A stretch of 64,000 nt of DNA, from the NCBI RefSeq assembly GCF_041248615.1, contig NZ_CP158426.1, one strand, 5' to 3'. This document shows positions 2,661 through 51,323 of the stretch, in pieces. The stretch's first letter is position 1. Every line of letters begins with the position of its first letter. The notes beneath the pieces were generated by a model, which searched no databases, had not been told where the DNA came from, and was given only the letters and a program-made list of their open reading frames with translations. Made by a program: the position numbers and the translations under genes. This DNA comes from Escherichia coli. GTDB taxonomy: Bacteria; Pseudomonadota; Gammaproteobacteria; Enterobacterales; Enterobacteriaceae.

Positions 2661-2700
2661 ATAAAAAGAAAAAGGCTGATGATTTCTCGTCAGCCTTTGC
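2661..2700 (-). terminator. Hairpin plus T-run (minus strand) immediately 3' of the tRNA fragment; likely the original ileX terminator, also closing yqjH
   Basis: aaaggctgatga / tcgtcagccttt stem with T-run on the minus strand (A-run 2661..2670 on plus). Confidence 0.5.
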
Positions 2701-2879: not shown

Positions 2880-2903
2880 TTACCTGACCCATTACCTGAC
2901 CCA
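2880..2903. repeat. 24-bp direct repeat TTACCTGACCCATTACCTGACCCA (left copy), 47 bp upstream of int
   Basis: Identical 24-mer at 51043..51066; contains an internal tandem of ACCTGACCCA. Confidence 0.8.
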
Positions 2904-2949: not shown

Positions 2950-4266
2950 ATGGCCGTCAATCTTACTGAAACAGCCATCCGAGCATTGAAAGCAAAAAAG
3001 ACATCGTTCTATGTCTGGAGCAACAGCTCTCAACGTGGCACTGGACGACTTGGTGTCAAAGTTCAGCCTTCTGGCAGCAAGATTTTCTATTTCCGCTATT
3101 ACGTGGAAAAAGGGAAAAAAGAAAGATTCATTCAATTGGGTATATGGCCTGAGATGAAACTGGCCACAGCGAATGAACTGGCAAAAAAGTATGGTGCCTG
3201 GCTCATTGAAGGAAAGGCTCCCCAGGCAGAACTGGAACGACAACAGTTTGCAGAACAGCAGCGGATACAACTCCATCAATCACAGGGCTCATTTGAAGCA
3301 TTGATTCATGGTTATGTTAACAAAATGAAAATTGATAATAAGAGGACATGGCAGGATGTTCTGAAACGCCTTGAAAATGAATGCTATACAGTGATCCCCC
3401 GTGAAACTAAAGCTAAAGATGTGACTTCCGGACAGATTAAACATATCCTGGCCGGGATCATTCAGCGCGGTGCTGTGGTTCACTCTAACCGGATCCGTTC
3501 TTACCTGATGGCTGCATTTAACTATGGACTGAAAGCAGATAACGATCCGATGAACACAAGTGTAGGGATTACTTTTGGGCTGGAGGCAAATCCGGTGTCA
3601 GTGATACCGAAACAGTCATCTGCTGAAAAAGTCGGTGATACCTGGCTGACACTTGAAGAGTTGCGTTTTCTAATGGAACATTTTGCTGAAGCAACCAACG
3701 TTGGATTATTGATGCAACATTTGATCCGATTCTGTATCTATACCGGAGGGCAACGTCCTTTCGAAATGATCGCCAGTCAGTGGTGTGATGTTGATTTTCA
3801 ACAAAAAACGCTGCTGGTGACTGCTGATGTCTCTAAAAATAAACGAGAGCATTTGATACCGTTGACTGAATCAGCATTACAGGAATTATCCTGTGTGCAG
3901 GAGTTAACAAAAGAAAAATCCAGCCCTTACATTTTTCCACTTTCGACTAATGGTAAGCGTCCGGTTCGTACGGACAGTCTGGCTCGCGCTATCATGTATT
4001 TCCGGGCTTTTAATCCTGACTTTAAAATTTTTACAGCACGTGACTTACGTCGGACCTGTAAAACGTTAATGGGAGAAGCTGGGATCAGTAAGGAAATCCG
4101 CGATCGTATTCAAAATCATGCGTTGAACGATGTCAGTTCAAAACATTATGATCGATACGATTATTTGCCAGAAAAACGCAGAGCACTTGAGATCTGGGAG
4201 GACCGGGTTAATAACTATCAACAGCAAACAGGCAATAATGTTGTCAATCTGTTTGGCAGAAGGTGA
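2950..4266 (+). CDS. P4-like tyrosine integrase (N-terminal arm-binding domain plus C-terminal catalytic domain)
   Basis: 438-aa ORF; N-terminus MAVNLTETAIRALKAKK...; C-terminal R...HxxR...Y catalytic residues (DLRRT, NHAL, SKHYDRYDY). Confidence 0.9.
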   Translation: MAVNLTETAIRALKAKKTSFYVWSNSSQRGTGRLGVKVQPSGSKIFYFRYYVEKGKKERFIQLGIWPEMKLATANELAKKYGAWLIEGKAPQAELERQQFAEQQRIQLHQSQGSFEALIHGYVNKMKIDNKRTWQDVLKRLENECYTVIPRETKAKDVTSGQIKHILAGIIQRGAVVHSNRIRSYLMAAFNYGLKADNDPMNTSVGITFGLEANPVSVIPKQSSAEKVGDTWLTLEELRFLMEHFAEATNVGLLMQHLIRFCIYTGGQRPFEMIASQWCDVDFQQKTLLVTADVSKNKREHLIPLTESALQELSCVQELTKEKSSPYIFPLSTNGKRPVRTDSLARAIMYFRAFNPDFKIFTARDLRRTCKTLMGEAGISKEIRDRIQNHALNDVSSKHYDRYDYLPEKRRALEIWEDRVNNYQQQTGNNVVNLFGRR

Positions 4267-7458: not shown

Positions 7459-7686
7459 ATGTGGAAGCCGTTAAGAGATGAGAACCGTTTATCAATTTTG
7501 AAGATCTATGGATACACCTGTGACAGACTGGTACGAGAAAAGGAACGCCAGAAAATTACGTCTATTTCTCGTTCACAAGCCTGGAAACTGGAACGTGAAG
7601 GAAAATTCCCGCCACGTAAAACTATTGGAAAGAAATCCTGTGGGTGGTTATTAAGTGATCTATTGTGGTGGATTAGTCAGTATTAA
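7459..7686 (+). CDS. AlpA-family phage regulatory/excisionase-like DNA-binding protein
   Basis: 75 aa; AGGAG RBS; HTH plus EREGKFPPRK..G.....W...L..W motif typical of AlpA/Phage_AlpA. Confidence 0.7.
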   Translation: MWKPLRDENRLSILKIYGYTCDRLVREKERQKITSISRSQAWKLEREGKFPPRKTIGKKSCGWLLSDLLWWISQY

Positions 7687-23271: not shown

Positions 23272-23598
23272 ATGACTAAAAATACTCGTTTTTCCCCCGA
23301 AGTCCGTCAGAGGGCGATTCGTATGGTTCTGGAAAGTCAGGGCGAATATGACTCACAGTGGGCGGCAATTTGTTCCATTGCCCCAAAGATTGGCTGTACA
23401 CCGGAGACTCTGCGTGTCTGGGTGCGCCAGCATGAGCGGGATACCGGAGGCGGTGATGGCGGGCTCACCACCGCTGAACGTCAGCGTCTGAAAGAGCTGG
23501 AACGTGAAAATCGTGAACTGCGCCGCAGTAACGATATCCTTCGCCAGGCTTCCGCTTATTTTGCGAAGGTGGAGTTCGACCGCCTCTGGAAAAAGTGA
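23272..23598 (+). CDS. IS629-like OrfA (HTH transposase subunit)
   Basis: 108 aa [21 protein letters not shown]...; leucine-zipper region; overlaps orfB in the -1 frame. Confidence 0.8.
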
Positions 23599-24012
23599 TG
23601 CCACTGCTGGATAAGCTGCGTAAGCTGTACGGGGTCGGACCGGTATGCAGTGAACTACATATTGCCCCGTCAACGTATTACCACTGTCAGCAACAGCGAC
23701 ATCATCCTGATAAACGCAGTGCCCGTGCGCAGCGCGATGACTGGCTGAAGAAAGAGATACTGCGCGTATACGATGGGAATCATCAGGTATACGGTGTGCG
23801 TAAAGTCTGGCGTCAGTTGTTACGGGAAGGAATCAGGGTAGCCAGATGTACAGTGGCGCGCCTCATGGCGGTTATGGGACTTGCCGGTGTTCTCCGGGGT
23901 AAAAAGGTCCGCACTACCGTCAGCCGGAAAGCCGTTGCCGCAGGCGACCGCGTAAACCGTCAGTTTGTGGCAGAACGTCCTGACCAGTTGTGGGTGGCTG
24001 ATTTTACTTACG
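23595..24012 (+). pseudogene. IS629-like OrfB, interrupted after ...QLWVADFTY by a group II intron
   Basis: Transposase homology ends at 24012; intron consensus GTGTG follows at 24013. Confidence 0.7.
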
Positions 24013-26769
<2,757 letters not shown>

Positions 26770-50179: not shown

Positions 50180-51025
50180 ATGTCTGATATCACAGCCTCC
50201 CGTCCGGAAGTAGTCAACGGGCATACGGACGTTATCTGCTCAACCAGTATCCGCCACATTCTGGCTGTACGAAAAAGTACACTGCTGCAAATCAACACAC
50301 TTATCCGGCAACTGGCTGAAATCTCAGCAATGACAGAAAGTATTGGCGGTAAAACCGCACTGGACTGGGCGATGAAACAGGATTTTCGCTGTGGCTGCTG
50401 GCTCATGGAGAAACCTGAAACGGCAATGAAAGCCATCACACACAATCTCGATCGTGAAATCTGGCGTGACTTGATGCAACGTTCCGGGATGCTTTCCTTA
50501 ATGGATGCACAGGCCCGTGAGACATGGTACCGGTCACTGGAGTACGATAATTTTCCGGAAATCAGCGAAGCGAACATCCTGAGCACATTTGAACAACTGC
50601 ACCAGAATAAGGATGAGGTGTTTGAGCGAGGGGTGATCAACGTCTTCAGAGGGCTGAACTGGAATTACAAAACCAATTGCCCCTGTAAATTTGGCAGTAA
50701 AATTATCGTCAACAATCTGGTGAGATGGGACCGGTGGGGATTTCATCTTATCACCGGACAACAGGCTGACCGACTCGCCGATCTGGAAAGAATGTTGCAC
50801 CTGTTCAGCGGTAAACCAATCCCCGACAATCGGGAAAACATCACTATTCGTCTGGATGAGCACATTCAGTCTGTTCAGGGTAAAGAGAGCTATGAAGATG
50901 AGATGTTCAGCATCAGATACTTTAAGAAGGGCTCCGCGCATATCACATTCAGAAAACCAGAACTGGTTGATCGGCTAAATGACATCATTGCAAAGCGTTA
51001 TCCGGGACAATTATCAGCCATCTGA
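50180..51025 (+). CDS. Hypothetical 281-aa protein at the tRNA-proximal end of the island
   Basis: ORF only; last gene before the reconstituted tRNA. Confidence 0.5.
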   Translation: MSDITASRPEVVNGHTDVICSTSIRHILAVRKSTLLQINTLIRQLAEISAMTESIGGKTALDWAMKQDFRCGCWLMEKPETAMKAITHNLDREIWRDLMQRSGMLSLMDAQARETWYRSLEYDNFPEISEANILSTFEQLHQNKDEVFERGVINVFRGLNWNYKTNCPCKFGSKIIVNNLVRWDRWGFHLITGQQADRLADLERMLHLFSGKPIPDNRENITIRLDEHIQSVQGKESYEDEMFSIRYFKKGSAHITFRKPELVDRLNDIIAKRYPGQLSAI

Positions 51026-51042: not shown

Positions 51043-51066
51043 TTACCTGACCCATTACCTGACCCA
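51043..51066. repeat. 24-bp direct repeat TTACCTGACCCATTACCTGACCCA (right copy), 57 bp from the tRNA 3' end
   Basis: Identical to 2880..2903. Confidence 0.8.
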
Positions 51067-51070
51067 ATTC

Positions 51071-51113
51071 AAAGGAAAAAGAAAAAGGGTTAGCTGGTTT
51101 ATTAGCTAACCCT
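51071..51113 (-). terminator. Island-borne rho-independent terminator directly downstream of the reconstituted tRNA
   Basis: Minus strand: stem agctaaccct / agggttagct followed by tttttcttttt. Confidence 0.55.
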
Positions 51114-51122
51114 TTGTTGTGT

Positions 51123-51198
51123 ATGGTGGCCCCTGTTGGGTTTGAACCAACGACCAAGCGATTATGAGTCGCCTGCTCTAACCACTGAGCTAAGGGGC
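51123..51198 (-). tRNA. ileX: tRNA-Ile2 (anticodon CAU, lysidine-modified), attL side of the island
   Basis: 76-nt cloverleaf GGCCCCTTAGCTCAGTGGTTAGAGCAGGCGACTCATAATCGCTTGGTCGTTGGTTCAAACCCAACAGGGGCCACCA with encoded CCA; K-12 position between mug and yqjH. Confidence 0.9.
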
Positions 51199-51323
51199 CA
51201 TGGTAGCGGATTATAAAGTAACTCCGTGTCGCAATCCAGCCATTACCGCGCGCCTGCTGTTTTTATAAACAATGTATTTTCAATCCGTTATACTTTTCCT
51301 GGTGATGTTAGAAAGGAGTAAAT

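Follow-up and report, generated by a model that had tools for sequence, protein, structure and literature searches.

Organization of the ileX locus

We analysed a 64,000-nucleotide stretch of the chromosome of E. coli NRZ14408, referred to here as the window (Table 1). ARAGORN reported a single tRNA in it, on the minus strand and with the anticodon CAT. The initial annotation had placed ileX at 51123-51198 and was correct about the gene, although its coordinates were one base off. PGAP labels the gene tRNA-Ile and ARAGORN calls it Met; the right label in an annotation is tRNA-Ile2. The Rfam tRNA model gave a score of 72.0 bits, compared to a gathering score of 29. The gene mug is the neighbour on one side, and in island-free strains nfeF is the neighbour on the other. 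In the window, a genomic island begins at the 3′ end of ileX, and a 47-nt copy of the 3′ half of the tRNA lies at the far end of this island. The copy should not be named a gene in annotation.

Table 1. Features of the ileX locus and its island; coordinates are those of the window, except in the first line
Feature	Coordinates	Strand	Evidence or remark
Window	E. coli NRZ14408 chromosome NZ_LT599825.1, 768001-832000
Intact ileX, tRNA-Ile2, anticodon CAU	51124-51199	-	ARAGORN, Rfam, PGAP, empty-site alignments
Native part of ileX, positions 1-29	51171-51199	-	Alignments with empty sites
attL identity block, tRNA positions 30-76, island allele at 50, 59, 60 and 64	51124-51170	-
Island-supplied hairpin and U-run, predicted intrinsic terminator after ileX	51076-51115	-
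Two tandem TTACCTGACCCA repeats, P′ arm (GGGTCAGGTAA on the tRNA strand)	51043-51066	+
Genomic island, 48.4 kb	2754-51123	.	PGAP; precise empty sites
AlpA-family small DNA-binding protein, candidate excisionase	7459-7686	+	Pfam Phage_AlpA, E 2.5e-14
Tyrosine integrase with arm-binding domain	2950-4266	+	Reads away from displaced fragment
Two tandem TTACCTGACCCA repeats, P arm	2880-2903	+	47 bp upstream of integrase start codon
Displaced native ileX 3′ fragment, positions 30-76, K-12 allele	2707-2753	-
Original ileX terminator, still beside fragment and nfeF	2663-2698	-	Hairpin 2671-2698

According to PGAP, the island carries genes for an integrase, AlpA, raffinose/sucrose and lactate catabolism, type I restriction-modification and Ag43. 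It also holds insertion sequences, a group II intron, a CbtA/YeeU toxin-antitoxin and a DUF4942 gene that ends at 51025. The hypothetical proteins of the island had no family match in Pfam or NCBIfam. The integrase and AlpA genes look intact. Pfam assigned Arm-DNA-bind_3, Phage_integrase and Phage_int_M to the integrase, the last with 23.5 bits, which is under Pfam's 27-bit cut-off. NCBIfam matches of the integrase were all far under their curated cut-offs, as for PRK09692 (72 bits against 434). Within the island, ltrA, encoding the reverse transcriptase/maturase of the group II intron (24684-26192), sits between two pieces of IS3-family transposase pseudogenes (23272-26761), and an IS1414 remnant is found just upstream of that region.

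Both ends of the island, and no other part of the window, contain tandem repeats with the 12-nt unit TTACCTGACCCA. Four exact copies of TTACCTGACCC occur there as two tandem pairs, and 0 of 100 shuffles reached 5 matches for this island-end repeat. The pair on the P′ arm is located 57 bp beyond the 3′ end of ileX. The TTACCTGACCCA pairs, one per arm, make good candidates for arm-type sites of the integrase.

Two copies of the ileX 3′ half

The fragment and tRNA positions 30-76 of the gene, numbered here by our own count along the 76-nt sequence, align in the same orientation with 43 of 47 bases matching. The tRNA-strand sequence is ...GGTCGTTGGTTCAAACCCAACAGGGGCCACCA in the gene and ...GGTCGCTGGTTCAAGTCCAGCAGGGGCCACCA in the fragment. 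Going from the fragment, which has the K-12 allele, to the gene, the four differences are C50>U, G59>A, U60>C and G64>A. Positions 50 and 64 form the second pair of the T-stem, which the fragment has as C-G and the gene as U-A. Positions 59 and 60 fall in the T-loop, where they are unconserved and lie outside the conserved contacts between the D-loop and the T-loop. This bears out what the initial annotation had reported: 4 differences in 47 positions, two of them a compensatory T-stem pair and two in the T-loop. The longest perfect identity between the copies is 20 nt (positions 30-49), and the identity block as a whole has its first bases, G30-A31, in the anticodon stem. The repeat is not a product of chance, as it extends over 47 nt with 43 matches, flanks an island with an integrase, and has precise empty sites elsewhere.

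Such empty sites were seen in K-12 and in strain Z1323HEC0423, in both of which nfeF, the terminator, ileX and mug follow one another with nothing between. Their ileX is complete, has the T-arm of the fragment (GCTGG / TTCAAGT / CCAGC), and runs directly into the same nfeF-side terminator and then nfeF. All 47 positions of the fragment are identical to the functional ileX of K-12. Since island-free E. coli thus combine the fragment-type T-arm with the same terminator, we infer that the fragment is native and that the 3′ half of the gene in the window came from the island. The initial annotation had taken the fragment for the K-12-type native end and the 3′ half of the intact tRNA for an island-derived one, and both proposals agree with the empty sites and with the contiguity of the variant arm and the island trailer. 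In Z1323HEC0423, a NADAR-family gene (L001:3808-4371), lacking in both the window and K-12, was found between mug and rpoD.

The 5′ flank of ileX aligned identically to that of K-12, hence the promoter side of the gene is native. By alignment, ileX is island-derived from somewhere within positions 30-49 through position 76. None of the four differences occurs before position 50, and the gene has the island version at each; the crossover would thus fall on the 5′ side of that position, inside the identical 20-nt segment 30-49. Taking these observations together with the comparisons below, we consider it very probable that the 48.4-kb island, which has a P4-type integrase, entered ileX and supplied the 3′ half and the terminator from its own attachment site.

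The variant allele in other Enterobacterales

To follow the allele of the window's gene, referred to as the variant, one genome per species was scanned for exact matches to 45 nt of its 3′ half. We found 71 loci in other Enterobacterales, in Kluyvera, Kosakonia, Pluralibacter, Edwardsiella, Dickeya, Serratia, Lonsdalea, Atlantibacter, Pseudocitrobacter, Citrobacter and other genera. In 54 of 73 occurrences the entire 76-nt tRNA was identical to the ileX of the window, and nearly all of the remaining occurrences were displaced fragments adjoining other islands. At many loci of other genera the 76-nt gene had a trailer unlike that of this island family, and the gene in those genera is therefore independent of this island. 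As far as these genomes show, the island allele (U50-A64, A59, C60) is the allele of many other Enterobacterales, while the E. coli allele is C50-G64, G59, U60. The initial annotation had described the T-arm changes as compensatory; the pair is real, but it is evidently an allele of other genera inherited with the island and not a change that evolved in ileX after insertion.

The island family itself could also be traced outside E. coli. Integrases 85-87% identical to that of the window adjoin displaced tRNA-Ile2 fragments in Kluyvera ascorbata, Enterobacter sp. Bisph1 and Escherichia sp. ESNIH1, at about 200 bp from the fragment and in divergent orientation, as in the window. The start of the identity block seen in the window, at the boundary ...ATGA/CTCATAA, was also found in fragments of other genera that adjoin this integrase family (L008, L028, L053). 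Intact tRNA-Ile2 genes of Enterobacter, Kluyvera, Kosakonia, Citrobacter and "Erwinia" mediterraneensis are followed by trailers with one and the same layout, consisting of a hairpin, a T-run, about 15 nt and then GGGTCAGGTAA, usually twice. Among the seven family trailers aligned, at least one repeat copy occurred at the same position in all seven and a tandem pair in five. From the matching integrases, fragments and trailers, the same island family can be said to reside in those genera.

In other Enterobacterales, several different trailer types follow tRNA-Ile2; each type has a hairpin and a repeated motif peculiar to it (e.g. AGGATACCTATAGGATACC, CCGGGGATATGCCGGGGATAT and GTGGCGATNAAATGGCG; L008-L078). 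Several integrase families appear to target the tRNA-Ile2 gene.

Distribution of the two alleles in E. coli

In a set of 5426 complete E. coli genomes, the exact variant tRNA was present in 345. The K-12 allele is 94.7% identical to the tRNA of the window, and 4951 of 5510 matching records fell in the band of 90-95% identity. Mutation after integration, either by decay of the fragment or by drift of the gene with a compensating change, could be another origin of the four differences: a displaced fragment is unselected, and the terminator next to it does have a strain-specific SNP at 2680. However, the fragment equals a functional K-12 gene at 47 of 47 positions, the four-change combination of the gene recurs exactly in the 71 loci of other genera, and the same four changes co-occur in all 345 E. 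coli genomes. We therefore regard post-integration mutation as exceedingly improbable.

The island trailer adjoins ileX in 474 genomes. Set against the 345 with the variant tRNA, this leaves roughly 130 genomes with the island, nearly the same trailer and a K-12-type T-arm, a figure that is approximate as it presumes that the 345 genomes lie inside the 474. Examples are the ST131 strain 4993 (L006:2989-3145) and ZJ3920 (L079). ZJ3920 has an integrase identical to that of the window at 435 of 438 residues, yet its arm is of the K-12 type. One island family can thus be found with either arm, which shows that the T-arm allele is not fixed and can switch. Gene conversion or recombination between repeats must, to judge from these pairings, also occur in the island family.

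An island-free counterpart was found in MS20654 (NZ_CP082083.1, L005:3067-3142), whose ileX has the four variant T-arm bases beside the native terminator and nfeF. The initial annotation had proposed alignment with island-free ileX and had named the arm GTTGG...CCAAC in such relatives as the sign of a foreign fragment; among the 5426 genomes, MS20654 was the only island-free one with this arm. Its locus looks like the scar of an island loss that took a route other than faithful integrase excision; the routes it suggests are a recombination inside the final 12 nt of the repeat or a conversion of one repeat by the other. As a separate observation, the island-free ileX of BS-01 (L007:3067-3142) has U60C alone and is intermediate between the K-12 and variant alleles.

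To look at the other end of the island, we built a synthetic junction query in which the native terminator is joined to a variant-type fragment and then to island sequence of the integrase side. No exact match to the variant-type displaced fragment was obtained in the 331 genomes that span this junction, and the top full-length matches were at 97.5%, equal to 4 mismatches, i.e. a K-12-type fragment. The same search yielded no variant-type fragment that could be the intermediate behind the MS20654 scar. This result weighs on the opposite assignment of the two copies, according to which the lineage was natively variant-armed, like MS20654, and the K-12-type fragment was brought in by the island. 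MS20654 itself, with its variant arm next to the native terminator, speaks for that assignment, as do the related islands that have a K-12-type arm in attL. Against it, the fragment in the window directly adjoins the native terminator and nfeF just as in the empty sites, integration at the anticodon loop leaves the host 3′ half exactly where the fragment lies, the best junction matches are K-12-type, and the variant arm passes directly into the island trailer, its companion in other genera too. A foreign fragment is accordingly very unlikely.

The swapping of alleles within the island family, together with the island-free scar, also gives some ground for supposing that it was not the integrase crossover but homologous recombination or gene conversion that gave the ileX of the window its variant arm, for instance through imported DNA or an exchange between repeats. 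Yet the variant arm is found together with the island trailer, and the island family has this allele in other genera, which the integrase route explains with no extra step. The longest perfect identity between the copies, 20 nt, falls short of the length that RecA needs in E. coli to recombine efficiently, and would make a poor RecA substrate. We consider such an arrival highly improbable, and retain integration of the island through its own attachment site as the explanation of the chimeric gene.

Terminators on the two sides of the island

The original hairpin and T-run terminator, which the initial annotation had left with the fragment, was indeed found there; an A-run (2663-2673) precedes the hairpin on the plus strand and is a U-run on the tRNA strand. 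At 2680 the window has T where K-12 has C. On the tRNA strand this creates a C.A mismatch, and on the nfeF strand a G.U pair; the predicted fold is -16.9 kcal/mol compared to -22.7 kcal/mol for the K-12 version. A terminator pattern scan at the fragment end returned nothing, presumably because the T at 2680 breaks a pair; repeat finding and folding do show the hairpin. This T was absent from the top-ranked island-bearing genomes of the integrase-side junction search.

After the rebuilt gene, a different hairpin had been proposed at 51071-51113. A hairpin is present there, although that position was approximate: we located it at 51084-51115, with a 12-bp stem and a loop of 8, beginning 8 nt past CCA. 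The tRNA strand continues with TTTTTCTTTTT after the hairpin, the U-run being UUUUUCUUUUU, and the fold has -17.4 kcal/mol with a z of -5.2. Transcription of the tRNA probably terminates at this island hairpin.

The hairpin is different in that it comes from the island side, yet it is not unlike the native one in the family as a whole. A hairpin and T-run were present in all seven family trailers aligned, which come from six other genera, and on this conservation the hairpin is to be seen as a conserved module of the attachment site of the island family. E. coli and Kluyvera have the loop GAGAAATC in their native ileX terminators, and it recurs in 6 of the 7 family trailers, that of the window being the exception. 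The flanks CAAAGG...CCTTTTTCTTTTT are in turn common to the island trailer of the window and the native E. coli terminator. The common loop and flanks suggest that the attachment site may once have captured the 3′ end of ileX along with its terminator.

Predicted function of the rebuilt tRNA

The sequences GGCCCCU...AGGGGCC and the anticodon stem are the same in the rebuilt gene and in K-12 ileX, and all four changes lie in the T-arm. Rfam scored the two genes at 72.0 and 73.1 bits, respectively. In RNAfold the T-arm folded in both alleles, with an overall energy of -33.5 kcal/mol for the variant against -36.5 kcal/mol, about 3 kcal/mol weaker. Since RNAfold gave a non-canonical D-arm for both alleles, it was used for the T-arm and the overall energy only, and tRNA-likeness was judged by the Rfam covariance model.

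The identity set of IleRS comprises the anticodon loop, A73, C4:G69, U12:A23 and C29:G41, and the four T-arm changes presumably fall outside it. TilS of E. coli is reported to use as identity elements the anticodon stem and two pairs, C4:G69 and C5:G68 (PMC11947777), all of which the rebuilt ileX retains. As the rebuilt gene equals the tRNA-Ile2 of many other genera, lysidine formation at position 34 and isoleucine charging are probably normal, and it should be fully functional.

In three variant-bearing E. coli among the matches listed, the tRNA query found one genomic place each. The argument that ileX is the sole copy, and hence functional, can be made for some variant-bearing genomes such as these three, but was ruled out for the window strain by ileY, which is also present in its genome outside the window (L080:35796-35871, annotated near gabD) with a K-12-type T-arm. 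The presence of ileY means that function of the chimeric ileX is not forced in NRZ14408. Compared to K-12 ileX, ileY has C6U/G67A, a compensatory pair in the acceptor stem, and G28A and U43C in the anticodon stem, the latter two leaving an apparent A28.C42 apposition. Sequences about 85% identical to ileX were also found at 88 places on E. coli plasmids, and the one we examined (NZ_CP183151.1, 98014-98089) is annotated as tRNA-Ile.

AUA codons are slightly more frequent in the island (7.0 vs 4.8 per 1000 codons); the effect is weak, and AUA enrichment was dropped as an argument. There is a slim chance that the T-arm mismatches lower homologous loss of the island in comparison with the roughly 130 perfect-repeat islands, or that the altered arm or terminator shifts the supply of tRNA-Ile2 for AUA-rich island genes.

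Discussion

The arrangement of the locus can be accounted for by a single site-specific event. A P4-type tyrosine integrase would have inserted the island into ileX by a crossover centred on the anticodon loop. Williams reportedly set out, in 2002, a sublocation scheme for tRNA attachment sites, and the crossover would correspond to the class 'A' sublocation. The attachment site of the island would have brought its own tRNA-Ile2 positions 30-76 and a downstream hairpin terminator. On the attL side, the product would consist of the native promoter, positions 1-29, the identical positions 30-49 with the crossover among them, the island-supplied 3′ remainder and the island terminator; on the attR side, the host 3′ half and the native terminator would have been left beside nfeF.

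Genomic islands are known to restore the tRNA gene that they split out of their own sequence (Islander, PMC4383910). Islander-type islands have an intact tRNA, a displaced 3′ fragment, an island-supplied 3′ half and a terminal tyrosine integrase, and the same was found here. The identity block of the window, which extends from the anticodon stem, is in keeping with the anticodon-centred class of attachment sites known from them (PMC4383910). Nothing essential differs in the present island, apart from an island segment that is off the host sequence at 4 of 47 positions. This segment is the allele of other genera, and for this reason the rebuilt ileX is visibly chimeric. The tRNA-Ile2 genes of Kluyvera, Kosakonia, Serratia, Edwardsiella and Dickeya have the same 76 nt; only the copy in the window was assembled by integration. 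The case is one of ordinary attL/attR biology, already known in kind.

The CP4-type islands of K-12 (CP4-6 at thrW and CP4-57 at ssrA) share with this island a P4-type integrase, AlpA, Ag43, DUF932, an antirestriction gene, a RadC-like JAB gene, YeeU/CbtA and the DUF4942 end module. The CP4-6 integrase also lies at the end away from the intact tRNA, as in the window. Unlike the CP4-type islands, the present one targets ileX, and its cargo is sugar and lactate catabolism and type I restriction. ileX is a known integration hot spot in E. coli, used by the LAA pathogenicity island (PMC7545054) and by integrative elements of O145:H28 (PMC7067040). The LAA island has the same target, but the determinants listed for it differ from the cargo of the window (PMC7545054).

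The four mismatches are informative in several ways. They place the crossover 5′ of position 50, and they mark the allele of the attachment site, which is common across other Enterobacterales but seldom found at ileX in E. coli without the island. They also form a natural tag for later events at this locus, namely the swapping of alleles within the island family and the island-free scar strain.
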